Positions 2,578 through 22,936 of a stretch of DNA of 64,000 bases are shown piece after piece. The stretch's first letter is position 1. The number at the start of each line of letters is the position of its first letter. The notes under the pieces are model-generated. The model saw nothing but the letters and a program-made list of their open reading frames with translations, made no database searches and had not been told where the DNA came from. Position numbers and translations under genes: made by a program. Location: the NCBI GenBank assembly GCA_965645245.1, contig OZ287075.1, forward strand, positions 1,922,001-1,986,000, written 5' to 3'. This stretch comes from Massalongia carnosa (taxonomy: Eukaryota).

Positions 2578-2741
2578 AATTTTGCGCTTTAAACCCGACA
2601 ATTCGAATATCGATATGCAATGAGATTTGTGGTTATGGAGGAAAAACAGCCGAGATTTACGCTAGTGTAAAATACAGTTTAAGAGCTCTCAATTTGTTAT
2701 TTCTTCACTCCAAACTCCAGTCAGTTATTCCCAAGCATTGT

Positions 2742-4687
2742 ATGGTGCAATTAAGCTGGGGAATGCGACATTGGCGAAACAACTGCTGGAGGATCAGGGA
2801 ACGCCTACAAGTTCAACGCGGTCCGGAAATTTCAAGCTTCGCGCGTGCTCCGAGTTCTTTCTTGCAAGCCAAGCATGATGCTCTGACCTTAAGGCACCGG
2901 AGAACTTTAAAAGGTTTTCCGCGGTATTTCAGTCCGGGCGATCAATTTTTCAGCGTCCTGAAACAGCATGATAGCACTATCTACGCGTTGTCTACTGCCC
3001 CTGGCAGATCCGCCATTGCAATAATACGCGTCTCGGGCTCAGCTTGCTTAGAGGTGAGCACTCCTCTGGGTGTGTAAAAACCAGATGGTAATTCTAAGAA
3101 GGTATATCAAGGACTTTGTCCTGGGAAACCACCTCCAAAGCCGAGATATGCCACCCTCCGAACTCTGTACGATCCAGCAAGCCCACCGGCGAATACCCAA
3201 GTCCTAGACCCTAATGCGCTGGTCTTATTTTTTCCAGCGCCAAATACCGTCACGGGAGAAGACGTACTTGAGCTCCACCTTCATGGAGGGGCCGCAGTAG
3301 TGAAAGCCGTAATGCAGGCGATTCCCAAAACTCTTCCTCCTATTGTGGGCAATCTGCAAGTATTACGATATGCTGAGCCTGGGGAGTTTACGCGCCGAGC
3401 CTTTTACAATGGAAGACTTGATTTGACTCAGGTCGAGGCACTTGGAGACACCCTATCTGCCGAGACGGAACAGCAACGTCGGCTGGCGGTAAGAGGAGCT
3501 GCGAACGCGCTGTCCCAAGAGTACGACCGATGCCGACACATGTTGCTGCATGCCCGAGGTGAATTGGAGGCTCTCATAGATTTCTCGGAAGATCAACATT
3601 TTGACGAATCTCCCAAGCAACTTCTTCATGCTGTTGCGAATCGTATTGAGCATCTCCGCAAGCAGTTGCTGACAAATATTCGGAATGCGTTTCGCGGGGA
3701 GTTACTCCGCAATGGCATCAGTGTCGCTCTGATTGGCGCTCCAAACGCAGGGAAGAGCTCACTGCTTAATAGAATCGTGAAGAGAGAAGCCTCGATTGTG
3801 AGCAAGCAGGAAGGAACGACAAGGGATGTGGTCGAAGTGGGCGTCGATATTGGGGGATTCTATTGCAGATTTGGTGACCTTGCGGGCCTGCGGAAAAGCT
3901 CTATAGGGCGAGGAAATATTGGAGAGGTCGAAATGGAAGGGATACGACGAGCAAAGGCGCATGCACGAGACTCCGATCTCATCGTTCTTGTTCTCTCGAT
4001 GGAGGATATTCTGCATGGAAAGCACACATTTATCAATGCAGAGGTGGAGGAGTCTCTAAGATCTTATGATTCTGAAAGCCAAAGACTAGTCTGTGTGGTT
4101 AATAAGTCGGACCTCGACCGGAAGCCTACTGCTCCAATGCCTTTGATATCTAAGATTAAGCAGCATCCAGCTTTGGAAAGGTTGGGTGCAAAAGGTGCGT
4201 TACCGCTTTTTGTCATATCATGTAAAGAAGCAAAGGCCTCGCAACCCGACATCCAAGATCCTGGCGGTATCCAGTTCCTGCTGGATGGCCTGGTGCACGT
4301 CTTCCAGGGGATGACATCCCCGATCCATTCGGGTCTCGTCGACTCGTCAGTTTGGGAACAGTCTCTCGGAGCAACGGAGCGGCAGCGTCTGTTGCTGCAA
4401 GAATGCTCTCGGCACCTCGAGTCCTTTCTCGCAGAGGTGAGGTTTCCCGAGGACAGTTCCGGCTACGCTCAGGACAGGGAGAATGAGGAGGACATTGACG
4501 TTGTCCTTGCAGCCGAACACCTTCGGTCTGCTGCCGACTGTTTGGCACGGATTACAGGCAACGGCGAGGCTGGGGACGTGGAAGAAGTCTTGGGAGTGGT
4601 GTTTGAAAAGTATATAAAGATGCATTTAAGAAGATACTCTAAAGACATGCTGAACATATTGTTTACAGATTTTGTGTGGGAAAATAA
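2742..4687 (+). CDS. MSS1: mitochondrial tRNA modification GTPase MnmE/TrmE (3 exons; start ATG 2742 or 2763)
   Basis: TIYALSTAPGRSAIAIIRVSG, TVTGEDVLELHLHGG, AEPGEFTRRAF, G1 GAPNAGKSS, GTTRD, DLAGLR, NKSD; terminal exon FCVGK* after an intron at about 4610-4668. Confidence 0.95.
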
Positions 4688-4876
4688 ATCGCCGAAAAAC
4701 TCCGTCCATGCAACGCTACCAAACGCCTGGAATGCATGCATCTATTCGCCCTGAAGCATCAATCTATAAAGTTCGCGAGTCAACTCGAGCGATTTTCCTC
4801 CCTAAAGTTCACAGTCATGCTCTTCCTGAGAGCCAAAAATAATATACCCTTAGACCACCCATCGGCCAAAGGCTTT

Positions 4877-5869
4877 TCATGATAGGAAAGGTGATCGGTT
4901 TGGTGATCGACTGGGTGGGGTTCCGTTGTATCCACCTCGGCCGGTAAGCACCGGTGAATCCATTGCAGTAGCCGCTCCTAGTCTTGGTGATGAGTTGTAT
5001 CCGCCTCGGCCGGTTAACGACGCAGTTTCTGGGATTGCAGGGGACTTGCTTCTCGGCGATGCGTTGTATCCACCTCGTCCCATGGGCATTGGTGAATCGG
5101 GCGGGGTTGGAGTGCCAATTCTGGGTGATGCGGCGCGGCCTGACCGTCTTTCAGGCGACGGGTTGGATGAGGTGGCAGGAGAACCATTTCGAGGGGTGCC
5201 GTTGTATCCTCCCCTTCCCATTGCGACGAGCTGTTGGCCGATCGAAGCTGGAGAGTCGCTTCTGGGCGTAGCGTTATATCCTCCCCTTCCCATTGGGATG
5301 GGCTGTTGGCCTATCGAGGATGGAGAACCGTTCCTGGGAGAAGCATTGTATCCTCCGCGTCCCTGGGGCACCGGCTGCGCGATGGGCGCTGGGGATCTGC
5401 TTCTCGGGGAACCATTGTATCCTCCTCGGCCCATGGGCACAGGCTGCGCAGTCGGCACGGGGGCTCTACTTTGTGCCCTCATCTCAGCAAGCGACGCGCT
5501 CGGGGGCGACGCATTGTATCCCCCGCGACCCATGTTCAGCGCCTGCAACATGGCCGGAACCGGCGATCGGCTCCTCGCCCTGAAGTCCCCGGCGGTCGGG
5601 GACGGGCTACGACTCGCGGCGTTGTAGCCGCCTCGTCCCGTCAGGCCGGCTTCGGCGGTGAGGAGATGCTCTTGGGTGCGGCCGCGCGATACGGATCGCG
5701 AGCGTGACCGGCGCTCCTCCTGCCCGAGCGGGTGGTGATGGCATTTTGCGTTATAGCCGCCACGACCGCTGTTGGCGAGTTGGTGGGCGAAGGGAGCGTG
5801 TTGGGTGGCGATGGGGGTGGGAGGGGTTGTGGTGGTAGTAGGGGCGGGCGGGGAAATGACACGGACCAT
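4877..5869 (-). CDS. intronless low-complexity protein with 10 perfect GRGGYN repeats and SP/RS-rich linkers
   Basis: 330 aa ORF; the ten cores are identical in protein but use different synonymous codons; no signal peptide. Confidence 0.88.
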   Translation of the reverse strand: MVRVISPPAPTTTTTPPTPIATQHAPFAHQLANSGRGGYNAKCHHHPLGQEERRSRSRSVSRGRTQEHLLTAEAGLTGRGGYNAASRSPSPTAGDFRARSRSPVPAMLQALNMGRGGYNASPPSASLAEMRAQSRAPVPTAQPVPMGRGGYNGSPRSRSPAPIAQPVPQGRGGYNASPRNGSPSSIGQQPIPMGRGGYNATPRSDSPASIGQQLVAMGRGGYNGTPRNGSPATSSNPSPERRSGRAASPRIGTPTPPDSPMPMGRGGYNASPRSKSPAIPETASLTGRGGYNSSPRLGAATAMDSPVLTGRGGYNGTPPSRSPNRSPFLS

Positions 5870-6554
5870 GGCTTCTTTGGGGGAGGGAGGTTTTGAGTGT
5901 GTTGTTGGCAGGCGAAAAGTCAGACGGGTGGGTTTCGCGGTAGAGGAACGGCGCGTACAAGACGTTGTTGGGTGTTGGGGATGATTGATCGTAGGAGAGA
6001 AAACAGATGAACGGAAATCCCGAGTTAGCTATGTAATATATGCTAGTGGATGGTCGATTTGGGGGTTTTGGCGGTCAGGTGATTGATTGATTGATTCACG
6101 GGGGATCGACGGGATCGACTGATTGTTTGTTTTGTTTGTTAGACTCTGTCTTTTTCTGCTTGGTCCATGTTGGTTCCTCCCACGATATATATATTCTTAT
6201 TAATAACGCCCAACGGTGCTGCTTCTCCTGCTCCTCCTGCTCCATCCTATGCCTGCCTGCTTGCCTGCTTTCGTGCCTAGTTGATTTCTGCCTGCATTCC
6301 TCCATTCCCCCTCCCTAGTAAACCATCCCTGCTGCATACATGCAATGCGGGCATGTAACCCTTGCACCAAAAAAAGCCCCCTCCGAGAGTCCTTTGGGAG
6401 AAGGGCGGCGATTCATCATCCTCCACTCGTGGGCATCTCGCTGAATGTTCCCTATTCCAAAATAAAAAATAAAAAACACCCCATCACAATACCGCTAAGC
6501 CCATTCTTGGCATATTACAGAGTACGGAGTGACCTTCCTTACCTACCCGTACTG

Positions 6555-6591
6555 CATCGCATCGCATCGCAGCGCAGCGCAGCGCAGCGCA
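6555..6591. repeat. compound pentanucleotide microsatellite (GCATC)3(GCAGC)4
   Basis: gcatcgcatcgcatcgcagcgcagcgcagcgcagcgc read directly. Confidence 0.85.
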
Positions 6592-7391
6592 ATCTTACCT
6601 CATTCCAATCTCATCTCATCCTCTGTTCGTTCGTTCGTGCAGATTTGCCAGCCCCCACAGCCCTACAGTCCCTTTGTTAGATACATGCTTGCATGGTCAA
6701 AGTATTATTACATGGCTCATACAGCGTGCAGCGTGTAGCGTATCAAGATCCCCGGGTCCCGGGGAAGGATACAGAGATAGCAAGAAGCTAGCCAACCAAA
6801 GAGGAGGTTTAGTTCAGAGAGTATTCTGTACAGAGTAAGGACCGCCCGACCGACCGAGCGGTCGGGTCAGATTCGTTACGCTAAGTTGGTTGTACCTGCG
6901 TCTTCATGGACTTGGGTGGTGTGGGAAACCACGTGGTTCTCGCCCAAGGGATGGAAATAGAACTTCGCGGTGGGATGGAGATAAGGAATAGTAATTAGTC
7001 ACGAGGGGAAAGTAAGGCCTGAGGATCGAGTTTGGGGTTTTGTGTTTCCGAATTTTAGCTTTACGAATGGTGCTTTAGGACCTTTTACCTCTGTACAAAG
7101 TGCATACACCTCGGCAGTTACAGAGTAGCAATGTTGGCATCAACCCCAAGTTGGCTCTACTCCAAGTTGGTTCTACTCCTCGCTGCTTGCTGCGGTGTGA
7201 AAACGTGTGTGGGGTGTGTGGGTGCGCCCTACACGTGCCATGTGCGGTGTGTAACAAGTTCTACGAAACCTACCCATCGGTGTGGGTAGGATCAGAAGGA
7301 TTGGTACCTGAATAACCCGTAGCCAATGAGAATAAGAGAGATGATACCTTTTCCCTCTTGGGGTTAGGAAACTGCATTCCTACTACCCAGC

Positions 7392-7632
7392 CACGCGAGT
7401 GACGGAATTAAATTTACACCGAACCTTTTTCCTCACCAAAATCACCGGATTTTCTATCATAAACCGTAGCGTTTTTTTAGTTAATTTCATGGTTTTTTGA
7501 ACTTCAATAATCAAATCAATAATCTGCCATTCTGTCTTCATCATCAATCACTGCTTGCAAACTTTTAGGCATTAAATCACGATGATTTTGGTGGGGGAAT
7601 TTTGGTGTAAATTTAATTTTGTCACCTGCGTG
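7392..7632. mobile_element. 241 bp non-autonomous TIR element, CAC...GTG termini, 5 bp TSD (Transib-like signature)
   Basis: Left cacgcgagtgacggaattaaatttacaccg...caccaaaatca matches the reverse complement of the right end (cacgcaggtgacaaaattaaatttacacca...caccaaaatca); CCAGC at 7387-7391 and 7633-7637. Confidence 0.85.
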
Positions 7633-9199
7633 CCAGCCAAGGCGAGGCTAGTTAGGTGGTTACGTGACGGAATTCTGGTTTGACAGATACCTAGTGAAAA
7701 TCACGGTGAGCGCATGCTTTGGACATACCTATCAAGGAGAGTTCGTGATAACGATGATGAGTTTGGATGGATGGAATCATTACATGGGTGACTCCACCGT
7801 GTTCCTTAGGCTACCGAGCCACAGAACTAAGTCCTAGAGAAACGATGCAGGAACCAATCCGATGAAAGGGAGGATTGGGAAACACCACGTCTTCCCAACC
7901 ATCAAACTCCCTCAGGAGTGCAGGGATCCCGAAACCATGGGATTTTCTGGAAGCAGAAGAAGGCAGAAAAGAACATGGAACACTATTTTCTTCCAAGCCA
8001 CCGAATGAACTAGGTAGTTCAACCAATCACGACCTCACTCCGGAAGCCTGGGACAAGCGAACATGCGATGATGATGAACCATGATGATAATTATCAAAAT
8101 AGAAAAACCCCATGATTATAATTGCCGTTGCCGTATCACCGTTTCGATGTCAAGAACCGACTCCCAAGGAAAAAGCGAATAGGAAGGGTGAAGGGCCTGC
8201 CTGAGTGAGTAAGCGGTGTGGTACGCTATGCAGATTGTAAGCGAGAGAAAGAGGGCACGGAGGGGGCACGGGGGTAATGGGTCGCGCTTAGCCTGTGTAA
8301 GGTGTGGTATAGAGTTCACAGTCAGATATAGTACAATAAGTATGAAAGGTGCATGGAGGCTGAAGGGGGAGTTTGGCCGTGACGGTGCATGATTCATGAT
8401 TGGATGGATTTAGAAACGTATTTTTAGCAATTCTTGGAAGCAAGCAGGGGTAGGAATTTGACTCATTGGACGTGCGAAAGAGACGATGATTGCTCGCTGT
8501 AAGGTCCCTGGGAGTGGGCCTGCCTGACTAACTGATGAATGATGCTGAGTGGATCCACCATGCTGGATGACTCAATATTCATCAGGAATAAGTCGAGTCG
8601 AACAGTGACAGGATTCGTAGAACGGAGCGACTGAATTACATATCAATTCCACTCGGTTCTCTCTGGAGACGGGCGATGAGGAGCAAAAAAAGGATCGTAG
8701 CTATAATTACCTCCTGTTCATATGTCAGATATGCAAGCGTTATTTGGTCGTCGGTTGGAAATCTTTGGAAAGTAGGAATGATTCGTGGTGACGACCACCT
8801 TACCCGCCTACGAAACGTCGCTAGGAAATCTAAGATCTATTCCTGGGGCCATCCGTCGAAGAGAACCTGAATGCTATCTCGGATGATTTGTGCCTACGTT
8901 TCGTCGCGTCACCCTGCTACAACCCAAAGATGCAAGCCTCGGGTATCACTCGTCAGGCGGGCACAGAGTCGTAGTGGCTCGGATCTGCTTCCCCTAGGGC
9001 TCCGTCGTGCTGGTATGGAAACGGCAATTCGATCTCTAAACCAGATCCTGCCTTTGGCTCCATAGATACGTTGAGAGTCATTCTTTCTAGGTGTTGCTTA
9101 TGGTGTCAGTGAAGGATGATTCATTCTGGTAGTGTTCATAATCGTAAATCTTCGGGAGCGGGACAGCGTTTTAAGCTTAGCTTAGAGATTGTTATGACT

Positions 9200-10020
9200 G
9201 GTAATTGGTGGCAAGGTAACTTGTAGCAAGTATTCCCCTTTCTAGGTATCCTTCACGGCCACAAGAGTGGGGACGTTATTCGCCCTCTGAGTCAGATCCT
9301 CTGGTTAGCGAACAACCCTAGCGGCGCTGGGATCACAGCTGTGACGGAGAAAGAGCACAAGGGTAAACGGTAGCGAAAGCCAATCCGGCAAGAATAGGGC
9401 CGCTGCTAGTTACGGAGGAGACCTCGAAGCAGGATCAACGGTATTTTTCCGAAAGCCATATTGAGTAGCCAGAGCATAATCAGTCCATTGTCATCTCCGT
9501 CAAAGGGCTCATGATACAATGCCGCGGCCTTGGTGTAGCACGTCATCTAGCAAGTATTGTCAACAAGGACCCAAAAGCAGTCATCGCAATGCAGTAAATG
9601 CTTTATGTTCAAAGTTCCAAAGATCGAGGATTCCTCCAAGATTGCTCCCCCTCATTCATATTCCCTAGCAGCTTGACCTGCTTCCGTCCCAAGACAGGTT
9701 TGATAACAGGATAGGCCTGGCGAACGATCGTACCTCTTTGTAACTTTTTCTCGGCTTGCTATCGCGAACTATTCGCCTTCTATTAGATTATTGGCGCCTC
9801 GACCTAGTGGTTTGTCAACTCCGTTGGTAACCAGCGGAAACATCAGTTGTCGAAAAACCCTGGTGCGTTCCTCGCGCTCTTGAACATTAGGGGGAACTGC
9901 GCTGTATAGGAGGAGCTCGATGATCATCTTGTGCCCACAATACACCCTTATGACGTTCAAAGTGGCTAATGAGAGAGCACGTCTAACGAGACATCGCTGG
10001 ATTACGAACATAAAACCCAA
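9200..10020 (-). pseudogene. possible decayed ankyrin-repeat gene fragment
   Basis: GHKMIIELLLYSAVPPNVQEREERT resembles an ankyrin helix-2/loop consensus; surrounding frames are broken; boundaries approximate. Confidence 0.3.
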
Positions 10021-11429
10021 AGTGCCCGTTATGCCATAGCTCCTTATATCGTTGGCGAGCCACCTCGGCGAACAGGCTATTTTCCAGCAACGATCCTCTT
10101 ACAAGCATGTCCAATGCTCTACGAGACTCCAGGATAAATTATATTTAATGATAAACCACCAAACCTTGGACCCAGCCAAATCAACCGTTTTTATTGAACA
10201 CTGCTAGCCTCTTGTGTCACCGGCAGTCGATCTACAGCTCTGATGTTGCCATTAGTCTTCAATGAAGTATTCTGTTAGAATACAACGTGGAAACACGTGG
10301 CATCGGAGGCTTTTCTCTGAAAGCGGTGGTAAGGTGCGATCACCCGGAAAATATGCTGCGTGTGATCGGGTTCGAAGAAATTGTTGGCTGATATAGGTTT
10401 CGTCGACTCATCCAAGGATTTTCAGTCGCAATAGCAGGACCGATATAGACGAGATTTTTGTCCTCGCTTTTTACAACCACGCAAGAGCTTTTGTATATGA
10501 ACGAAAGAGAAAACAGCTAGGTACCACAGAGAACGACCTCAAAACGCATCCTAAGGATCTCTTATCAAGAGACGGACGGACTAGATGGATGTTTCTTTCA
10601 ATATATACTTATTGATAGCATAACTATGGTAAGAGTTCCATGGAGGCCAGCCTTAACCTTGGGGCACATTGAAGTTTGGCTTATCGTCACCATTACCAGA
10701 ATATAACCCTTTATTGGCGATCGCGGTTACAAAATAATCGTTCTATTTTGACATTTCAGCTCTTCCTGATTAACTTAGTGCAAAATTTGGAACATCGTAG
10801 GAGTAATAAGATTTATGAAAATGCTTATAAGAAAAACATTTCCCACGTCAGATATAGGAGCATCAAAGCTAAGCCTTAGATTTTTGAATTGCGTCATGCC
10901 TCGCTCAACCTTCAAGGGGGGATTCTTTGAAGTTCATTGAGAACATTTTTATAATGTTTCAACGGGTTTTCACAAAGTATTTGCAAGCCAATCTCTTGAA
11001 CCGTGTTCCATGATTGCAGAACATCAAAATAGGCCATGCGGTTGTGATATAGAAAGAAATTTTATTTCAATAGTTGAGGAAAACTAACGAATGCTAACCT
11101 CTCTTGATGACTGTCGACGCTCAGCCGTACATGTTTTGGATTTGAGAGCACCACAGAAATGATGCGACATGATGGGAGGTTTTCGAAGTCCAAACTTTTA
11201 ATGCCATATTGTCACGCTTCGTCGATAGTAGTCCCTTCAGAAATGCCGCCGCTCTACTGCATCGATACCAATGCATTTTACACTGACCTACCAGGAATCA
11301 TGTCAAGACATTTGCTTTCGTTGGGAAGCTATATATGAAATTTGCCGTAACCACGACGTATTAAGGGCTAGGTGAGAAGCACGTTAAATTTCAATGAAGA
11401 TTGGCTATTGTCCCTGACTCAAGGAACCT

Positions 11430-12176
11430 TCAAACGGGACTTAGTTTGTTCGTGCAGGACTTAGACCGCTCAACTGGGGGAGTGGAGAATTGGTCTTCCA
11501 AGCTCATGATACTCCGTAGCTGATCATTCAAAGTGCATAGAGTCGTACCGCGACTGTCAACCCAATGGATGTCAACTATTACATTCTTTATGCCCCGAAC
11601 CTGACGAAGCGGCATCAGCCATGATGCGCCAAGATTTACTTGGTCTCGCAAACCGGAAAATTCGAAGTGTAGCTCCAAAGAAAGTAACTTCATCTCTATA
11701 GCAATCCCATTCCAGATTTGCCCCCAGGTCCGATCAGTGGAATCGGGGCTAGCCGAATAAACCCACTGAACATCCAGGTGCCGAATCAGGTAAACGCGCT
11801 GCGTTCGTAGGTAATAACAGTGAACATTTTCGAATTTGGCCCGGCCTTGTAGATTAAATATGTTAGACCTAAACGCAATGTCCAAGCCTTCCATATAGGC
11901 CTGTCGAAAAGTTCGTAGCAGGGCTAATCCTGAATGATTCGCAAAGGGATAGGAAGTCAACTCAAGCGAGTCAACATAGAAACTAACAGCCTTCTTGCGA
12001 AGGAAAAAAAGGGTCTTAGGGCCGTGATAAACGTGCTCGTATATGAGGAACCGCATCTCAATTAGGAGTCGCTGCAAAAAAATTGAACGGGCGTTGTCGT
12101 TTCCTGGAGTATGAAAGGACTTGTGGGCACCCCTAGAGACAAAGTCATCTAACCCTTTTCCCCGGGTTCTTGGAAA
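11430..12176 (-). CDS. F-box-like/DUF7730-type fungal hypothetical protein, 5' end disrupted or unresolved
   Basis: FLQRLLIEMRFLIYEHV, LALLRTFRQAYMEG...SNIF and WLMPLRQVRG motifs typical of this family; in-frame TAG at 12177-12179 upstream. Confidence 0.55.
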   Translation of the reverse strand, partial: FPRTRGKGLDDFVSRGAHKSFHTPGNDNARSIFLQRLLIEMRFLIYEHVYHGPKTLFFLRKKAVSFYVDSLELTSYPFANHSGLALLRTFRQAYMEGLDIAFRSNIFNLQGRAKFENVHCYYLRTQRVYLIRHLDVQWVYSASPDSTDRTWGQIWNGIAIEMKLLSLELHFEFSGLRDQVNLGASWLMPLRQVRGIKNVIVDIHWVDSRGTTLCTLNDQLRSIMSLEDQFSTPPVERSKSCTNKLSPV

Positions 12177-12526
12177 CTAGGCGTAGGAATGGTGCTTTTG
12201 CGAGCTTTGCTAGGGCGCCGGCGATGATGCTAGGGGGGAAATATATTCGAAAATTCTGCATACCCATGGCTTTGAATTTCAAATGATACTGCTTGGACGA
12301 ATATTCTAAGCAGGTTGATTAAACTGGTTTCGGGTCTTCTCTAAAGCTATTCGCCAGCGCAGACGGGGTAGAATTGAATAGCACACCTTAACAACTCCAA
12401 AGAACAGAATTATAACAGAAATGAATTGGATTTCTCTGAGGTAATGATTACTCGAGATTATCAAACCAAGTTGCCAAAGTTTTTTGCCTTAACTAGTTGC
12501 TACTGAATCGTGATGACGTTTCATCT

Positions 12527-12991
12527 CGAGAAGCTCGGGACAGCCCCCCACCGTCCCCCCAGCGAAAATCATTACAAATTAGGACTAGCTACAAGCCACC
12601 TCCCCATACTAAATATGTGCACGTCCACCATCTCGCAAGCTTCCTCTAGCTGATTTAGCTTAGCCTCGCATTCTGAAAAATCCTCATTGATATTTCGTAG
12701 TCAACCTGAACCCTTTGCACTGTTTCGCATATTTTCCGCACCGAGTCTTTAATAGGTGTATGTTTATTTGTCACATTCTTTACCAACGGATGCAAACCTT
12801 CCACTTTTTGTGTGCTATGTGCACCTAAATTAGGGAACTTTTTGGTGTATGCGGAAACAAACTGATAATTTGTCAGCTAGAGGAAGAAACGGTAAACGAG
12901 GTATATGCACCTAATTATTTAGTATGGGGAGGTGGCTTGTAGCTAGTTAGTCCTAATTTGGAATGATTTTCGCTGGGGGGAAGTCTTCTCG
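12527..12991. mobile_element. 465 bp non-autonomous Mutator-like element (MULE)
   Basis: Long TIRs (cgagaag...ccccccagcgaaaatcatt.caaattaggactagctacaagccacctccccatactaaata and its reverse complement); 9 bp TSD GTTTCATCT at 12518-12526 and 12992-13000. Confidence 0.9.
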
Positions 12992-13556
12992 GTTTCATCT
13001 TGCATCAAACTTTCTAACTATTAATAGTTCCTCTATATGGAGCGTACAGCTTTCAGGCAAATCTACAAAATGGGGCATTCATGATAGGTGAGATTTGACA
13101 AGAGACATCTTAACCTCAGCTCAATTCTTTTTAAACGCGACAGCTTCACAAAATGTACGACGATCTTAGATATTTATTTAACCTTACCCAGCGGCAGGCG
13201 TATTTCTTCTCTTCCTATCCCACGCCTTTTTCTTCTAGTATTTTTAAAACACAGATTACTTGTAGATGACTCTGGTGCTCAGACTCCCTGGCGCAAAATC
13301 AGGTATGGAGGTTTGATCCTTTCACCTTACTTCAGGGTAACGGTAGCTATGCTAGTAGGCAGCTAACTAGGTTGTGTACCCTCCCTCAGCGACCGCAGCA
13401 AACTCGTTTTGAAAGGTTTCAGCGATGAAAGCATGTTCCCATTTAAACGTTTCGGCCGAATAGTTAATAGAAGGTGGCGATGGAATAGCATAGGTGATGA
13501 TAATAACCGAAAGCCAAGAAGTATATCTAGGGCTAAATCAATGATAATAAAGAATA

Positions 13557-13780
13557 ATCGTGTTCATCCCCTTTTGCACCAGCGCTAAAACTAAAAAGAT
13601 AAGCGAAAAAAGCAAATCTTCTTCAGTATCGTCACTTCACATGGTTATAAATTTAACTTCATACTATCTTGAAAATGATAAACTTTCTTCAATATAATCA
13701 TTATCGCAGTTGATTGTTGATTTTGTGATCATTAAATCAGGAAGCTAATTTAGCGGCCGCGTTCAGCGCGTGAGCATGAG
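13557..13780 (+). mobile_element. decayed MITE, copy 1 (TIR about CTCGTGTTCA, TA flanks; Tc1/mariner-type)
   Basis: Ends atcgtgttca / tgagcatgag, both flanked by TA; internal blocks match the reverse complement of 15909-16175. Confidence 0.6.
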
Positions 13781-15908
13781 TAACATTAGCATCATGGCTC
13801 GACTGTAAACAGTTTCTGCCTTGAATTACATTCGACCGCAACTATCTGATCTAAGAAATACTGCAATCAAACGCAAATCCGAAGAAAAAAACTAGACTTG
13901 CACATTAGCCTTATACTAATTCTAATCGCTTCAGCAATTCTCAATCCTCGGACCAGCTCCAATGGTAGAGACTATGTGTTGAAGCCTGTCTCTCTAGCTA
14001 ATTGGGAGTAGGCACAAGGATTAGCCACGACTTACGGAGCAGTCAATTTTTCCGCCTGCCAGTAGACTCCATCACAGACGAACTAATTCTCATCTATTCA
14101 TGTTTCATTGACCATCTCATAAGCTTGTGGAGAGTTATGAAATCTTGATAGCTTAAACGAAATGCATTCTACTCAATACTCTAAAGGGTCTGAGGAATCT
14201 ATCAACAATGAAAATAAGCCCACCTAAGCACTAGGTTGTGCAACCACTTAGCTTTATAGACGTGAAATCTAACAACGTTGTGATCGAGTATAGATTGGAC
14301 ATAGAAGGCTAACCTTACATCCAAAGGGTCAACTCGGCTGACCCAGAAAGCGCCGCCAAAGTCGAAGAATGAGCACGCATCACTGGGATACAGTTTTGCA
14401 ACTTTATGTGGCGCAGTCCTGAAACACAAGTGGAATTCGCATCGGCAAGGAATTGGATGTGTTCTCTTTTAGAATCGTAGTAACTAGGTGCTCCCTAGCA
14501 AGTCTGCAAATCTAGATTCGAGGATTATATTTGACTGAACGCTAGTTTGCAGAGTATCCACGCCGTACTGGGAATCTATATCATTAGTTTCGAGAGAGAG
14601 AAGCTGGAAGAGGGAGTTTTGCCAGAGGTAGAGGTGATTTTGTATGTCGGACTAACGCCAGAAGGACTCTTGGAACATATTAACCATGACCAGTGGTGCG
14701 CAAATTTGACTTAGATGAGAAGAAGCTTCAACAAAAACAACCCTGCAAAGATTTTGTCTCTTTGAAACTACCAAGGCTTCCCCAACGTCGACTTGGACTC
14801 CAAGAGACTTTTCGGTAAGGCGATGGACCTTGATCCAGCCAAGAGGGCAACAATGGACGAGCTCTAAATGATGCTTGGCGATATACCTAAGGAAATTATT
14901 ATGCATATAGACTATTTTCATCTCCTCTGGCTTGAGTCGTGCAAACTCCATTCAGCGGGCTCGACTAGCACAAAGCAAAAAGGTCAAGCAGAAGAGCACA
15001 TCAGCGTTTTCTGACTGAGATTAGGTAATTTTACTTTCGCCGAACTATGGGGTAACCTGCTTGAATACTTCTTATTGCAGGATATGCTGCATGCATGGCT
15101 TACAAATGTTATTGTAAGGACGTTCTCCCCTACCGATACTTCTCAAAAGCGGAGCGAGTCTTAGTTAAAGTGCTAACATAGGCTCCGGTGCAATCGTAAG
15201 GGTGGATTGATACATAGATTAGCCATTGGAGTGAGTCCTAAAAGGATGATTTGATAAGGTCGAGGAGCTACCTAGGTGTTTGATTGATAGCCCTAAAAGA
15301 TTTGAAATAGCTACCAAATAACCGTCCCACGGGGGATTGGTAGCTATCCGGGAGTTCGTCGGCATTCAAGGGCCATTATAATGTGAGAATATGGCGAAAC
15401 TTTTGTAAAGGTAAATATGCGATCTGTCTTTAAGTGTAAATAAGGAGATGTAGGCAGTAAACTTTATTTTTGAAATAGGACCTTTGGGGCTTGCGCCTAA
15501 CTATTAAGGAGATTCGGAATTCCCAAAGACTTTGCGAACACGTCGGTAATCGCGGATGTTGATAATCAATGTGTTATAGTCCAAGTGCTGCAATTGTTTC
15601 AAGATGGACATGTCAAACTTAGACTTATGCCACGGTTCGTGGGAAGCGCTATCTGCGCTGGAAAAGAGGGACGTAAAGAATAATGAAGCCGCTATCTAAC
15701 GTGACTGATTTTCTCTCGCCGTCGCCAAACACTTATCGTTTGACGTAGTAGCCAAAGGAAGCTTGGCAATATTACTTAATACACAATTATGATGACGGCT
15801 TTCAATGAAATGCTGAGGAAGGCAGAAGTAAACGAGGCTGGTGCTGGACAATACTACGAAATCGAATCTCTGGGTCTAAAAGTGGATTCTCAATATGGTG
15901 TTGGCAAG

Positions 15909-16175
15909 CTCGTGTTCAAACCCCTTTTACAGCAACGTTAAACGCGATCGCTAAATTAGCTTAATAATCTCAAAGTCAAAGATTAGTTGCCACAATGATA
16001 ATGATAACGAAGCAAAACCTTCATTTTAAAGAGAGTATGGTGTTGAGGTTATAGTTATATGAATTGATGACACTGATAATCTGAAATAGTTACATAAAGA
16101 TTTGAGTTTCTTTTGATCTTTTTAGTCTTAGTGCTGATGCAAAAGGAGGTGTGGTGCAAATGGGGTGAACACTAG
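15909..16175 (-). mobile_element. decayed MITE, copy 2 (inverted relative to copy 1)
   Basis: Ends ctcgtgttca / tgaacactag; aacgcgatcgctaaattagctt and gatctttttagtcttagtgctgatgcaaaagg are inverted matches to 13742-13763 and about 13570-13600. Confidence 0.6.
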
Positions 16176-18308
16176 TAGTTGTTAATGGATAGATATAGAC
16201 ACGCCCATGTTGATAAAAGATCTTCTGAGGCTGGATTTTGATCATGGACGCGAAGAACCATTTTAAGATACAGTAATGACTGTCAAAGCCAAGTTTAATA
16301 GGAATCAAGATACTCCGTACTCATTCCCATGTATTGAGGTCGTGTTCCTCGACAAGGTCAAGGTGAATCTCAAGCAATGGGTCGTGAAACCATGCCAGCC
16401 TCCACATTTCTCTGTGATAACTGCCCAAAGAGTCCGCAATAGATCGTTGCTGGGCCCACAGAGCTCTTGGAAACCTGTACCCTCATAAATGGAGGACATG
16501 GGTCTTCTGCCATTAGCTTTGAAATGGAAGCAGTCAATTGGCCGGGAGACGTTAAGTCTTTGAAAACCTGCCTCAACCACCCATTATGCCTAAGACTGGG
16601 AATTTGAAAGATTACAAACTCTCTTCGAGGCTAATCCATTCAGTAACGCGTCTGCCAGAAGGCTAGACATCACATCCATCTCCAAGGTGTCTAGCTTATT
16701 TTTTTTACTTGTGCTTGTACAGTACACGACAATGTTTGACAACGGTGATTAGCCTTCTGTTTGTTGAGTTGTTCGTCCAAAAATCTATCTAGATGGTGAA
16801 ACATCGATGATGAAGAATTTGGGGACCAGAAGATTGTTTGTCGTTAGGAAAGTGGACATTGGCTCAATCGGTAAAGGGTTCATTGGCTGGAGAATAAAAG
16901 TTACGCGTCAATGGATCTGTTTGGTCAGGTTTCAAACGTATTGTCCCTATGACGTAAAGGAAAAATCTAAGCTTGACCCTACATAGTACTCCGTACACTC
17001 GCCAATCTTGGGAAAAGTATGAGAGGGGACAGGTTTTGGGGCGGGATCACAGTAGTTGTACAGAGTACAGCGTCACAGTACAGACTACCTCGTACAAATA
17101 TGTTCAACGCAATTTCAACGCAAAGCTGTATTGAGATAAGTCCTGAATCACTTCAATCACTTCAATTTGCCACGGAGTGAAGATCAGTGGGTGATTCAAA
17201 AGCTTGATTAGTTAGGCAAGCTTTGAACCGAGGTTCTCCCTGCCTTGATTATTTGTTTTATCGTCCTTTGCGCCGGCCCGCTGCTTGTTCGCCGCCAATC
17301 AAATGTTTCAGCACAGCCACACGCGAATAGGGTTCTGACACGCTTTTCCGCAACTTGTTTTTTGCGACCACGTTATTTTCCAGTCCGTCCTGCGAGTAAT
17401 TGCAGCCAGATGTGTCGGGGAGTAAAGATGGTATACAGAGTCATTGCCGCTGTGATGACTGCGAGTAGTGGTACTGACAATTTCATATTGAATTATTTGG
17501 TCCATTGTACGATCAATATACATGTAGGAGTCGTACAATTAGCCAGTTCGCGAAATTGCCAAATTAGTCCCGCGTTTTTCATGAACCCTCGCGAGCTCTG
17601 ATTGGCTCAATGGTACAAAACAAACCCTAAGACGAAGCTAAAGCGAAGACCCCGCCCATCTCCTGCTCTGACTCCTGTACCTGACTTGCAAGAATCCCGG
17701 TCCGTTCGCACTGGAAGAAAAGCCAATGCGCTACAAGACCTCAAAAAGGGCAGGGACGTCTGTGCCCAAGGAAACCTGATTTGCCCTGTTTTCGTGCTTT
17801 GCATCGCGGCGACGGGGATTGATTGGTGGAGGATATACAGACCTGTATATGACGAAGCTGGCGTGAGTAATATGATGCTTCCTGCCAGCTGATTTGAGAC
17901 ACTGGAAAATGCAGGAGCGGCGAGTCTGGAATCGCAGTTGGTAACCCCAAAGGTGACTAGCGCGAGGAAGCTGTTGATCCCAAAACGCTGGCGATGAATT
18001 AGCTCTGGAAAGTGGGTGAACTAGTGCTGGTGATGACAATAGTGCGGTTGCTCATCGTGGTTACCTTCATTTTTGTTTTCCCGCTTTCCCCCCAACCCCT
18101 TCTCATATCACTTGGCAAACAAAACCCTCTTGTTGTTCCCTCTTCGTTCCGTTCACTTCTTCCTACCTTACCACACACACCTACATACTCACCTACATAC
18201 TCTGTACCCCTTCAATATTGCCTTGCCCGTTCCTCTATAACCTCAACCGTCACCCTATACAACTTATTTAATAGCACTTTTACTCCACATCATACCATCC
18301 TTCTCATC

Positions 18309-19381
18309 ATGAAGTACGCAGCATTAACCGTTGTGCTGTTCGCCGGTATCAGTGTGGCTCTGGACCTTTCCTTGCTCTCAGGTCTTCCTCAATGTGGTGT
18401 ATGTAAACTTCGCATACTGGCATCTGCGGGTCAATAAATTGACTTTTCATTAGCAAGACTGCATCAAGTCCATGTTGGGGAAAGCATCAGAGTTAGGATG
18501 CGGCTCTAGCGACATCATCTGCCTGTGCAATAACAAGGCTTTTGGCAATGGCATTCACGATTGTACCTACGAGTCTTGCCCCGCAGACGCAGATAAACCC
18601 AAAGTGGTGAATGCTGGCAGCCAATTTTGTGCCCGTATGTCAAATACTTTTATCTTAACAATCATCATCTAATACCTTTACTAGAAGCTGAAGCTGCCGT
18701 ATCTTCCGTTGTGTCTTCGGTTGTGTCAGCCGCCACTGTCACTACTTCTGGCTCCAGCCCAAAATCCGGTACTTTGACAGCCACCATCACTTCAACTGCT
18801 GCTCCTTCGGGTACGAGTACTGTTTTGGTTGCTACTGGAACGGACGCGTCTGGTAGCAATGTCACTTCAGTAGTCGGTGGACTTGTGTCAGGAGGCGTAG
18901 TGATTACTACGACAGACAGCCAAGGATCAACGTTCATCACCACTGTTACGTCTATCCCTACTGGCACGGGTAATTCAAGCGCCAGCGATACGTCAAGTGG
19001 CAGCGATACTTCGAGCGGTAGTGATACCTCGAGTGGTAGTGATACGTCAAGCACCAGTGATACCGGCAGTGGAGCTGGGATCGTTAAGGTTACTACAACT
19101 AACAGCGAAGGCTCCACGGTCGTATCAACAGTAAGTCAAATACTCTCATGTGCAAGTCAACGGTGGGCTTGAGTTTCTAATTGTGTTCCCTATAGTCAAC
19201 ATCTGCGAAGGAAACAGTTACCACTGGCACCACAAAGACAACAGGCGGATCCGGTGGATCCGGTGGAGCCGCTACAACATCTTCACCATCATCATCCTCA
19301 AAAGGAGCTGCAGCTGCTACGCGTGTGGCTGTAGCTGGCTTTGCGGGCGCGGCCGGTTTTGCAGCTCTTGCTCTCCTATAG
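18309..19381 (+). CDS. CFEM-domain GPI-anchored cell-surface protein (4 exons)
   Basis: Signal peptide MKYAALTVVLFAGISVA; 8-Cys CFEM LPQCGQDCIK...GCGSSDIICLCNN...IHDCTYESC...QFC; Ser/Thr stalk with SSGSDT repeats; hydrophobic C-terminus ...GLAGAAGFAALALL*. Confidence 0.92.
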
Positions 19382-20134
19382 AACGTCTCTTCGCGTATGC
19401 AAGAGGAGTATTTTTTGAATACCCCGCTCTATCTGAGCAACACGGGGATTTGGAGGAGAATCGGTACTTTTTCCTCGGGTCGAAGGGTGATGTGCAAAGA
19501 TTAGCGCTTTGTTTGATACCCTTCTTTGTCGATAGTTATGCCGCTTATGCTTCCTTACGCTACACATACTCCCGTTGCTGGTAATTACCTTGAGATAGAT
19601 GGTGGAAAAGGGGAGGAGGGTTGGTGAATTGAGAATTGAGTGGACAGTGGCTATGGGCTGTTTAAAAGACCTAAGCTGTTGGCGCATCTTAATAATTCGA
19701 TTCTTTGTATATTTCACATCGACATTCTACTTAATATAAATAAAAGTAGAATTGTAATTCAATTGTCAGCTTTGTTCTAGAAATGATCTTATTGCATATG
19801 GCTATTCAACTCATTTAGTCTAGATTTCATATGCGAGACATCATCCGCTAACTCCATCTGATGTAAGGTAGACATTATTACTATAATCTTTGCCTCTGTG
19901 TGAAATTTGGCTTTTTTAGGAACCCTATTAAAAGGAAGAAAGGGAGAGAAGGGTAGGGGAAAGGGCAGAAGGTTAAGTTGCGGTAGGGTAGATGGCCGAG
20001 GTTAGAAGGGGACACCTACCCAGGAGGCTGTGGGGGTGCGATGTACGGTGCGGGGGAGTGAAAGGAATTTAGGGGTGGGATGTGGGGGAGACGTTAAGGG
20101 TAGGAAAGAAGTATGGAGAAGGAGGGATAGGCGG

Positions 20135-20245
20135 CAAGCGCGGGTACAAAATAAGTGGCAGTTAGGCTAATCAATCAGACCACCCTGCCAAAATCTTCCT
20201 CTAATCGAAAAGATGGACAGCTACTTTATTTTGTAACCGCGCTTG
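20135..20245. mobile_element. 111 bp MITE, CAAG...CTTG termini, 4 bp TSD GCGG
   Basis: caagcgcgggtacaaaataagtggc versus the reverse complement of the right end, caagcgcggttacaaaataaagtagc; GCGG at 20131-20134 and 20246-20249. Confidence 0.75.
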
Positions 20246-21822
20246 GCGGGTGAATTAGGGGGTGGATATCCGAACGCGTTGAAGAAGGATAACTGGGTGG
20301 TGTGCGTCTATTAATCTATCTATGATACTGTCACTGAGCCATCATAAGAAAAGAAAAGAAACGAATGGTCAGGTCATCGCCGTCGTCATGTAGCTATATA
20401 TGTATGTACTGACTAGCTGACTAGATGAAACGAAGAAATGAATAGAAGAAGTGGGCGAGTACTGCCGGCTCAAGGGGGCCGATTATGTGACTGCCGGCAG
20501 TGGTGTTCGGTAGCACTGGCCCTCGCGTGCAGTCATCACACCTGTCGCCTGAGCATCTGGTGGAGGTCTACCCCACCCCTCCACAGCGTCAGAATGGTGA
20601 GTTGGCGGAAATGCAAGGATTAGGAAGAGGAAAATGTATGTTTGATTGATTTGATGGGTTCGGTTTGGGCGTTGCGGGGAGGGAATAAAAGGGAAGAAGG
20701 GAAGGGAGGGACGGAGGGTTGATTCGGGGTTGATTCGATCAGTCGGGTTTGGAGGATGACAGTAAGATAAGGTAGAGAGATAAGATGAAGGATAAGTTAC
20801 AGACGAACAGACATGCATGAATCGGATTCGGGTTTGTTACCCGATATCTATACTAGTCTCCAAATAGGAGGCGCTCATGATTAGGATGATGAGGAGAGTC
20901 TCTATGCGCTTGGATAGAGACACGCACTATACACAGGATTGGAGCGAGGGAACAGAGAACAGCAGACGCAGAGGAGAATATGTCTTGAAGACTTCATGAT
21001 GCGGGCCATGTCAGTATGAATAGGTAAGTAAAGGAGATTTCTTAATGTAGATTGAAAGGTCGAGTTTATATACCGAGTTAGATAGTCTTGGCCCGACTAT
21101 AGGAACTGGACGCTGTTGGGCTGTAGATGACGATGGAGGATGCGAGGATTGATAAGTACTGAGTGAGATTTGGGTGGGAGCTGCGGCCGAGGGCTGGGTC
21201 GCTGGCATGGGCGCTGGAGGGTGTGGGTTGGCCGGCTGAGGACGAGGCAGGGTCGAGAAGGACGGAGAGCGGCATGCTGGGGGAGGGTGGGAACGGCGGA
21301 GGAGCCCACGGTGGCAGGGTGGGATGGCTCTTTGAGGTTTTTTGAGAGAGACTTAGTGGTAAACCTGTATCTCTCTATAATTCCTAGCTGAGGTCCCGTC
21401 CATTCATCCTTGGCAGCACCAGAGCTGCAACTCGGAGCAAGAAGGCTCGGTGGATCAATGTGGAGCTGCTCTTGCAGAGACATGGTCTAGTCTCGAAGTT
21501 TCTGCTTGTCTTTGGTTATTGGACGACAGCAGTAAAATATCGGGTTTGGCAACGTGTGAAGGGAAAGAGGGGAAGCTAGGAGGTGACTTTGCGGTTCTGA
21601 TTTTTGTGTGTTTCAGCTGGATTGGTAGCTCGGTATCTTCAGTCCTTAAGTGTTTCCCCGAGCTAATTTGGCTGGTAGGTCCATGGGCTTGGGTGCAAAG
21701 TATTGCTCCCGAGTCCGCGTCTGTCGTAGCCGTCCATCGAAAGGTGGGCGTCCGGTTCCTTCGTCAGCCTCCACTCATCTCTCCATGCAAAAGCTCCTGA
21801 GCTTTGCATTCCATCCTAAATT

Positions 21823-22266
21823 TTACCTCCTTCCCCTACTTCCCAATCTCACCTCCTCCGCGTCCTCCTGATCACTCTCATCGCGGAACCCTACCTCTAA
21901 TTCCCGACTCAACCTTCCTTGCCCCTCCCCCTCCCCCCCCTCCCTCCCGCTAATCCCCACATTGTCTAAGAGCCCCTCTTCTAACTCCTCATCCCCGAGC
22001 AAGCTTTCTCCGCTTGCGGCGCTATTACGACGCGAGAGCTGGTTCACAGCAGGGAGAGAGAGCCAGGAAGGGAGACGGGACCTGAAAGAGGGAGGGTGAC
22101 GGGATCTTAGCCGGCGGTGGAGAGGAAGGATGAGATAAATTATTATAATGTAGAGGAGGAGAGCCAGACAAGGCGGAAGGAGGATTGTCTTGGAGTATGT
22201 AAGTTAGTGAATAATGAGACTTTCAAGAATGCGCACCTTCCAAAGACCGGAGCTACCAGCGCTCAT
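21823..22266 (-). CDS. small single-pass membrane protein, fungal hypothetical (2 exons)
   Basis: MSAGSSGLWK|TILLPPCLALLLYIIIIYLILPLHRRLRSR...RLSRELEVGFRDESDQE; GTGCGC...ACTAAC...AAG intron. Confidence 0.75.
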
Positions 22267-22936
22267 CGTGAAGGTAGTGTAGGAACGTGACGTTGTGGAA
22301 GGAGCTATTGAAGGTTCTTAGTCCTGAAAGTTGACGTGTTCTTAGGGTCAGTGCGTAGGAGGGTGGAAGAATTTTTCGGAAGGAGCGGGATAATAGCGGA
22401 GACGTCAGTGCATAGAAACTCAAAAGATTGCGTTGAGGCCAAAGAAACTCTTCGATATTTCGCTGTCCGAACACTAGCCCTGTCTAGTGCATTCACCCTG
22501 TCCTCAGTTTGTGATTAGGTAATGTACGCCGCAGGGGATGCGATACTTTGTTCATCCGTGAAAGGGACAACCCCCATTCTCTACTCAACACTCCACTCGT
22601 CACTCACCACCAGTGACGTCTTTACAGTCTTTTTTCCAGAATCTCATGCGTTCAAAGCCTGTGCGTCTGTGACAGCATCTTGATGTGAGGTTTAAATTCT
22701 CGTTTTTCTTACATTTAGGCCATTATTTCCTACTCCGACGTTACAACCGGGCTCCGAGACCAATGTTCCAACGGGCTGATGATCAGAACCCATGGCCTTT
22801 TAATCTTAACTCTACACGCGATACGACTTGAATAGGTGTCTTTTACACCTAGCACATTGCATGAGTGATAAGAAACGGGAAAAGATTCACGGGTGCGACT
22901 GTCAGAAAGAAAAAAAGAGCCCGTTCTGTGGGAAGG

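Follow-up and report, generated by a model that had tools for sequence, protein, structure and literature searches.

A single-exon gene of Massalongia carnosa encoding ten invariant GRGGYN hexapeptides, a candidate docking array in a disordered fungal protein

A stretch of 64,000 nucleotides from Massalongia carnosa (assembly GCA_965645245.1, contig OZ287075.1, positions 1,922,001 to 1,986,000, hereafter the window, numbered from its first letter) carries on its minus strand a single-exon gene whose 330-residue product repeats the hexapeptide GRGGYN ten times without any amino-acid change (coding sequence 4877..5869, with the ATG at 5867-5869 and the TGA at 4877-4879). The interpretation that we favour, with moderate confidence, is that of a decavalent array of short linear docking motifs tuned by phosphorylation. 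The protein, strongly basic and predicted to be disordered, would present a single short linear motif, G-R-x-G-Y-N, in a multivalent array, each copy of which would serve as a docking site for one and the same folded partner, itself a postulate; phosphorylation of the conserved [ST]P and RxxSP sites carried by the Ser/Pro-rich spacers would then tune or switch docking, localisation, or both. This interpretation is drawn from the exactness of the motif amid diverged surroundings, from its portability, from the predicted disorder of the protein, from the conservation of its SP sites, and from the precedent of the yeast protein Amu1/Par32.

The ten cores, all read on the minus strand, lie at 5750..5767 (core 1, residues 35-40, encoded by GGT CGT GGC GGC TAT AAC), 5621..5638 (core 2, residues 78-83), 5513..5530 (core 3, residues 114-119), 5414..5431 (core 4, residues 147-152), 5345..5362 (core 5, residues 170-175), 5273..5290 (core 6, residues 194-199), 5201..5218 (core 7, residues 218-223), 5063..5080 (core 8, residues 264-269), 4994..5011 (core 9, residues 287-292) and 4925..4942 (core 10, residues 310-315). 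Each of the six codons is used in at least two synonymous forms (first Gly GGT, GGA or GGC; Arg CGT, CGA, CGC, or AGG as in cores 6 and 7; third-position Gly GGC, GGG, GGA or GGT; fourth-position Gly GGC or GGA; Tyr TAT or TAC; Asn AAC or AAT). Over the 45 pairs of copies, the proportion of synonymous differences (pS) within the core reaches 0.755 and is effectively saturated, with zero amino-acid differences (the "nd 6.0" returned for the core by the Nei-Gojobori method, NG86, is a path-averaging artefact of CGY to AGG switches), while the six codons on each side of the cores display a proportion of nonsynonymous differences (pN) of 0.45-0.53 over the same pairs. An initial annotation of this DNA, made from its letters and their translations, had claimed ten unchanged GRGGYN copies with freely varying codons, and both the exact count and the synonymous saturation agree with it. 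Chance does not account for the copy number, because the composition of the protein predicts 0.00012 copies of GRGGYN and because no hexapeptide exceeded two copies in 2000 shuffles of the protein, against ten observed.

The surroundings of the cores follow a looser pattern. From one core to the next the spacing is 43, 36, 33, 23, 24, 24, 46, 23 and 23 residues, corresponding to the linkers of 17-40 residues given in the initial annotation. Its description of the flanks, with [AGS][ST]P following most cores and Met or Thr preceding them, also matches the counts: the residue at +1 is Ala in six cores, Gly in three and Ser in one; that at +2 is Ser in five, Thr in three, Lys in one and Ala in one (hence Ser or Thr in eight of ten); Pro occupies +3 in eight of ten; and the residue at -1 is Met in five, Thr in three, Ser in one and Gln in one. 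In the best-kept repeats (cores 4-7 and 8-10, with a spacing of 23-24), an extended unit can be recognized, approximately Q-P-V-P-M-GRGGYN-[AG]-[ST]-P-R-x-x-S-P-A.

Judged by comparison with its orthologues, the minus-strand open reading frame (ORF) is a true and old gene of a filamentous ascomycete; it codes for a protein in a single exon and is subject to purifying selection. A scan of metagenome contigs of the Joint Genome Institute (JGI) yielded 12 loci (L001-L012), nine of which (L001-L009, representing six distinct sequences) encode an orthologue of 301-312 residues with seven to eight intact GRGGYN motifs plus degenerate copies. In all nine, the orthologue is convergent, tail to tail, with a gene for an MnmE/Mss1-type tRNA-modification GTPase, as in the window, where the latter occupies 2580..4754 on the plus strand (Pfam TrmE_N, MnmE_helical and MMR_HSR1) and the two stop codons are 122 bp apart. 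Homologues, whose existence the initial annotation had left to be checked, are therefore present in syntenic position at nine metagenome loci. Between the window and these loci, identity amounts to 56% for MnmE and 34-39% for the repeat protein, and a start column M-x-R is common to the window gene and its orthologues in the alignment.

Could the frame nevertheless be a chance opening in a GC-rich, low-complexity repeat, or could the true gene lie on the plus strand? Two observations speak for such a view. A plus-strand ORF of 181 residues with LYPP[RL]P repeats (5082..5627) overlaps the repeat gene, and the similarity searches with the repeat protein brought no match: zero families in an hmmscan of Pfam-A at E<=10, just two chance-level coat-protein rows (E 0.5-0.6) and no relatives in a profile search of the PDB, and no usable match in the ESM Atlas. 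Codon wobble cannot by itself choose the strand, since the third codon positions of the plus-strand frame coincide with those of the minus-strand gene. The minus strand is designated as the coding one by the switches between CGN and AGG arginine codons, which are silent only there and give R-to-L changes in the plus frame, and by the orthologues, whose antisense frames are broken: in six of the six distinct sequences the sense frame is open across 301-312 codons, whereas each antisense frame contains 2-12 stops. The minus-strand frame of the window is itself unbroken over 330 codons and the TGA, and three genomic contigs compared with the window were identical to it, with no variants or joints. 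Given in addition the conserved synteny of the repeat gene with MnmE, and a ratio of nonsynonymous to synonymous substitution rates (dN/dS) of about 0.09 with third positions accounting for 145 of 208 substitutions, the idea that the frame is no gene is hardly credible, and the plus-strand ORF is regarded as an antisense shadow.

Selection acts on more than the hexapeptide. Between L001 and L002, dN/dS is 0.094 for a dS of 1.14, with 42, 21 and 145 substitutions at codon positions 1, 2 and 3, respectively, a result that amounts to one independent comparison since L002-L009 are nearly identical. When cores and linkers of this pair are separated, dN/dS is 0.031 for the former and 0.103 for the latter. 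The purifying selection on the hexapeptide put forward in the initial annotation is thus recovered when the two compartments are compared, and the linkers, which had been described there as divergent, turn out to be under purifying selection as well. With a dN/dS of 0.10, they are not disposable spacers. Their conservation was followed in a seven-sequence alignment (A1), in which column conservation is 0.50 for a Ser or Thr preceding Pro and 0.64 for the Pro that follows, as compared with 0.32 for other Ser and Thr and 0.28 for other linker residues. Seven of the seven sequences agree on four SP pairs (residues 182-183, 206-207, 276-277 and 326-327), and a stretch SPASxGQ before core 7 (SPASxGQ..V.M in its longer form) is nearly invariant. 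By these measures the linkers are functional, and proline-directed sites are their best-kept feature. Among the cores themselves, core 3 aligns with a core in all seven sequences, core 4 forms an invariant column block, and core 5 aligns with a degenerate GSGGYH of the orthologue group, a copy that is stably kept throughout that group.

The repeat protein is predicted to be fully disordered: AlphaFold2, supplied with the seven-sequence alignment, returns a mean predicted local distance difference test score (pLDDT) of 45.4, a predicted template modelling score (pTM) of 0.15, and no secondary structure. Its 330 residues are dominated by Pro (48), Gly (44), Ser (43), Arg (36) and Ala (35), for a net charge of +27, and they include 27 [ST]P sites, 10 Rxx[ST]P sites, 13 RS dipeptides and an RSRSRS stretch. 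All ten tyrosines sit inside GRGGYN motifs. The N-terminus, MVRVISPPAPTTTTTPP, lacks a hydrophobic core, and no signal-peptide-like segment was found, the best Kyte-Doolittle mean over nine residues being 1.18 overall and 0.90 when only the first 40 residues are considered. As regards Kex2 sites, the protein has no KR and no KK, and of its two RR (residues 53 and 241) neither is beside a core. The absence of a signal peptide and of KR sites reported in the initial annotation is consistent with both the low hydropathy and the count of KR.

Some simpler readings of the motif were considered and set aside. The N-glycosylation sequon (N-x-S/T) fits eight of the ten cores, and was rejected on account of the missing signal peptide and of the Pro that follows. 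N-myristoylation, which disfavours Arg at position 2, was rejected for a Gly exposed at the start of the motif, as Arg stands precisely there. A proline-tyrosine nuclear localisation signal (PY-NLS) was likewise rejected, the repeat protein having no PY element.

Sequence and profile searches revealed 21 further proteins in which G-R-x-G-Y-[NH] occurs two to nine times; three other search matches (P0009, P0010 and P0014) lack the motif and were dropped, being unrelated proteins of low complexity or with other repeats. Profile E-values range from 1e-120 to 1e-9 for 16 proteins, including the nine from which the profile was built. The close relatives are P0002 and a syntenic group, P0003-P0007. 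A sister group (P0011, P0012 and P0015-P0020, one of them from Diploschistes diacapsis) carries GRKGYN instead, most members having seven to nine of them; hhalign aligns it with the GRGGYN group at a probability of 98.2%, a value inflated by repeats and composition. Other members include P0021 from Xylographa bjoerkii, short ones in Lasallia pustulata and Aspergillus homomorphus, and the small proteins P0013 and P0022 (Curvularia kusanoi, GRSGYN), whose N-termini resemble signal peptides. Two or three motifs are present in proteins of 61-97 residues (L010 and P0023-P0025). The named relatives are all fungi, mostly lichen-forming Lecanoromycetes (to which Diploschistes, Xylographa and Lasallia belong), so that the long form looks centred on lichen-forming fungi, as far as this sampling of sequences goes. 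A provisional GRxGYN-repeat family can be delimited on this basis, comprising disordered fungal proteins with at least two G-R-x-G-Y-[NH] motifs and, where the orthologue group is concerned, a convergent MnmE gene; the window protein displays all these features. Within the GRKGYN group, and also at the C-terminal end of P0025, a GLGI element followed by R, T or F stands just before the last GRKGYN; it is invariant in an eight-sequence alignment (A3), and the window protein has no GLGI element.

Across 125 motif instances in 22 proteins, position 3 is Gly in 68, Lys in 54 and Ser in three, and Asn occupies position 6 in 122 of 125, while G1, R2, G4 and Y5 are present in 125 of 125 by design of the search pattern. 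The constant unit is accordingly G-R-x-G-Y-N and not an RGG box, because relatives carry RKG, RSG or RRG, and the label "RGG" attached to the protein in the initial annotation proves too narrow for a family whose sister proteins have GRKGYN, GRSGYN and GRRGYN.

The comparison of these sequences also indicates that the motif is portable between different protein architectures. A calpain-family cysteine protease (Peptidase_C2, E 1e-42), found at L011:646-3048 and L012:4309-6483, has five GRGGYN in its C-terminal part, in a disordered stretch past the protease domain, three of which are tandem units GRGGYNQNM[IP]G[DE]L[HQ]. L010:1154-1342 is a 61-codon ORF for an acidic microprotein with GRGGYN, GRGGYS and a last GRGGYN directly followed by TAA. 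P0022 (109 residues) contains one GRGGYN and three GRSGYNGAP repeats, each after a single Arg and an X-Pro dipeptide.

The main rival of the docking array is a scaffold of stickers and spacers, forming condensates or binding RNA, in which the Arg and Tyr of each motif would act as stickers through cation-pi and pi-pi contacts, in the manner of FUS-type RGG and prion-like domains, and the Ser/Pro linkers as spacers, the whole being tuned by SP phosphorylation and Arg methylation. GRGG is a classical context for arginine methylation and RNA binding. The fairly even succession of motifs with a single Arg and a single Tyr each, the confinement of all tyrosines to the motifs, the strongly positive charge with its RS dipeptides and RSRSRS stretch, and the full predicted disorder are all compatible with such a scaffold, as is the report that an RGG-Tyr peptide adopts a polyproline II conformation with cation-pi contacts (bioRxiv 10.1101/2020.07.30.229062). 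Domains of this type usually keep their composition and not an exact hexapeptide, however, whereas here G1, G4 and N6 are as fixed as the Arg and the Tyr while the linkers are 30-40% identical; moreover, the RGG triplet is not kept in relatives, and some carriers of the motif are acidic or neutral (net charge -5 for P0008 and -9 for P0021, and an Asp/Glu-rich L010). RGG-box proteins have closely spaced di- or tri-RGG within a few residues, and no such cluster occurs in the window protein, where ten single RGGs recur at intervals of 23-46 residues and are separated by linkers of 17-40. A nearer counterpart is the RGG-containing PY-NLS of yeast Hrp1, which is listed with a single GRGGYN in a table of PMC8140498: as in Hrp1 and other RGG/RG proteins, a G-R-G-G-Y context is embedded in a disordered basic region, which makes Arg methylation and binding of RNA or karyopherins plausible, but the window protein lacks a PY element and an RNA-binding domain, its RGGs are isolated, and the middle Gly is Lys, Ser or Arg in relatives. 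On balance, the sticker-and-spacer scaffold is a tentative possibility. Of the switch composed of RGG and SP elements suggested in the initial annotation, the SP half fits the conserved [ST]P columns, and the other half does not correspond to an RGG box as usually defined.

A second alternative treats the protein as a peptide precursor that would be cut to set free peptides containing GRGGYN, whether as a leaderless, cytosolic member of the peptides that are synthesised on ribosomes and modified post-translationally (RiPPs) or as a bioactive hexapeptide. An exact hexapeptide in variable surroundings is indeed what multicore precursors show, and the window protein resembles the Kex2-processed repeat proteins (KEPs) and dikaritin precursors (ustiloxin, asperipin-2a, phomopsin) in its many short Tyr-containing cores amid variable linkers. 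Met precedes five of the ten cores, the microprotein of L010 ends in GRGGYN directly at its stop codon, and UstY-type clusters without a recognisable repeat precursor inside are described in a survey of lichen RiPP clusters (PMC12048977). P0013 (111 residues) joins its signal-peptide-like N-terminus to a Kex2/Ste13 layout like that of alpha-pheromone-type KEPs (PMC7329392), with, three times, RR and EAEA, EVEA or EPEP before GRGGYN and KR directly after it. Its arrangement, RR-EPEP-GRGGYN and then twice RR-E[VA]EA-GRGGYN-KR alternating with DD[GD]FINGWG, would release bare GRGGYN. The nearest Atlas clusters of P0013 are hypothetical proteins of Ascomycota and one MF_alpha cluster, which at 0.81 falls short of the bar of 0.9, so that this layout is a lead only.

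The window protein itself departs from this model in several respects. According to PMC7329392, KEPs are defined by an endoplasmic reticulum signal peptide and by repeats separated by Kex2 sites, and UstY-type enzymes act on secreted precursors; the window protein has no signal-peptide-like segment, no Kex2 sites at its cores, and no DUF3328/UstY neighbour. The neighbourhood was scanned with Pfam over 80 ORFs of the window, chosen from 149 stop-to-stop ORFs with a length of 90 residues or more, together with 30 flanking ORFs of L001, L002 and L007; none of these encoded DUF3328/UstY, a tyrosinase, a P450, a methyltransferase or a prolyl oligopeptidase, although intron-split genes could escape such a scan. 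The neighbours were housekeeping genes (Mak16, MnmE, formin, GH63, leucyl-tRNA synthetase (LeuRS) and Pumilio). In addition, the linkers are constrained as strongly as typical proteins and contain invariant SP sites, and the motif also sits inside a calpain. Release of peptides from this protein is therefore considered very improbable, and the cytosolic multicore RiPP precursor imagined in the initial annotation finds no support in the signals of the protein, in the selection on its linkers or in the tailoring enzymes and peptidases sought around its gene.

The closest precedent for the favoured docking array is found in Amu1/Par32, which we take to correspond to the Pfam family DUF3602. The family is marked, among other things, by Npr1-dependent phosphorylation and by binding and inhibition of Mep1 and Mep3. 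In Saccharomyces cerevisiae, replacement of four Arg by Ala in the GRGGAGN motifs of this protein abolishes binding and inhibition of Mep1 (PMC4501750), and a four-fold mutation of the motifs abolishes nuclear accumulation and the reactivation of TORC1, the authors suggesting that the motifs bring in a partner not yet identified (PMC6249832); the activity of Par32 is controlled by phosphorylation (PMC4501750, PMC6249832). Like Par32, the window protein belongs to a group encountered only in fungi, is of low complexity and predicted to be disordered, and repeats a short Gly-Arg-Gly-Gly...Asn motif between Ser-rich phosphorylatable spacers. Binding of a partner by the motif can be inferred from this analogy.

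Is the window protein, then, simply a divergent Amu1/Par32 orthologue that regulates ammonium transporters and TORC1, with GRGGYN as a shortened GRGGAGN? Besides the common design, this idea can invoke the report of Boeckstaens et al. (2015) that BLAST fails on the Par32 family and that the repeated motif identifies its orthologues (PMC4501750). The pattern used for that family, G-R-G-G-X-[AG]-N, with three to six copies reported (PMC4501750), had no match when the window and L001-L012 were read in all six frames. Likewise, the search against the DUF3602 profile that had been suggested in the initial annotation gave no match for the protein (E<=10) or for its 21 relatives (E<=1), the library copy used having no positive control for DUF3602, and the only Pfam match among these relatives at that limit was to GRP, below threshold. 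GRGGYN is one residue shorter than the Par32 motif, with an invariant Tyr in place of Ala-Gly; its ten copies lie outside the reported range of three to six; and the window protein has neither the Lys stretch nor the C-terminal membrane-association region described for Par32. An orthologous relationship is accordingly improbable, and the link to Par32/DUF3602 drawn in the initial annotation is reduced to a resemblance in kind: by inference from this analogy, the repeat protein would work like Par32 without being a member of its family.

Returning to the phospho-tuned docking array, several points weigh against it. The docking partner is a postulate, and phosphorylation of the SP sites is presumed from the sequence. 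A released peptide, or a site of modification, would also account for the strict conservation of the hexapeptide. The dN/dS values derive from one independent pair (L001 against the near-identical L002-L009), with a dS of about 1.1 that is near saturation, and the low complexity of the alignments may inflate both column conservation and the hhalign probability. Finally, individual copies of the motif decay in nature, as GSGGYH, GRGGCN and GRRGYN. The last two are natural single-copy variants: L001 has GRGGCN, and L006-L009 have GRRGYN at the place occupied by GRGGYN in L002-L005. A hexapeptide that one protein keeps unchanged in ten copies, and that is held as well among proteins only 30-40% identical elsewhere, is a strong signature of specific molecular recognition. 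The multivalent, phospho-regulated disordered protein envisaged as the other option in the initial annotation is supported in outline: it fits the predicted disorder, the [ST]P sites that are better kept than other linker residues, the selection on the linkers and the motif in the calpain tail, phospho-regulation being the presumptive part.

A broader interpretation, doubtful yet conceivable, is that G-R-x-G-Y-N is the portable ligand of one dedicated reader conserved across filamentous ascomycetes, presented in several formats: the ten-fold, phospho-tunable scaffold, the calpain tail, microproteins ending at the Asn of the motif, and at least one secreted precursor of the Kex2/Ste13 type from which the bare hexapeptide would be freed. 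In that case, a signalling system of peptide and reader, so far undescribed, would have the window gene as its regulated member of high valency, and fungi might use the hexapeptide itself as a signalling molecule.

The recognition event seems to be undescribed. In the open full-text literature as far as accessible, subscription journals lying outside this scope, GRGGYN or RGGYN was met, among the matches listed, only as the single Hrp1 instance, as a synthetic peptide ending in Y-NH2, and as noise; GRKGYN and RKGYN were absent among the matches listed, and DUF3602 had no matches. As Pfam likewise holds no characterised family matching the protein, the novelty advanced in the initial annotation persists: the family appears undescribed, although its kind, the disordered regulator with repeated motifs exemplified by Par32, is already known. 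Par32, the only comparable case, links nutrient transporters to TORC1, and a reader of GRxGYN could reveal a comparable regulatory module peculiar to filamentous and lichen-forming fungi.

Some features of the surroundings of the gene may be added. The repeat gene is separated from the formin gene by approximately 16 kb (window 6300-22800) with few long ORFs and a lower GC content (0.39-0.45 in the 10-17 kb part); the sole Pfam match of this 16-kb stretch is a DUF7730 ORF at 11433-12176. A formin gene is near the repeat locus in both L002 and the window; in L002 it lies about 1.5 kb beyond MnmE, unlike the arrangement in the window, a different placement which indicates that the region has been rearranged or expanded. 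Lastly, about 200 bp upstream of the minus-strand start codon (window 5990-6110), short tandem runs of GATT/GATTGATT and of GTTT are observed.

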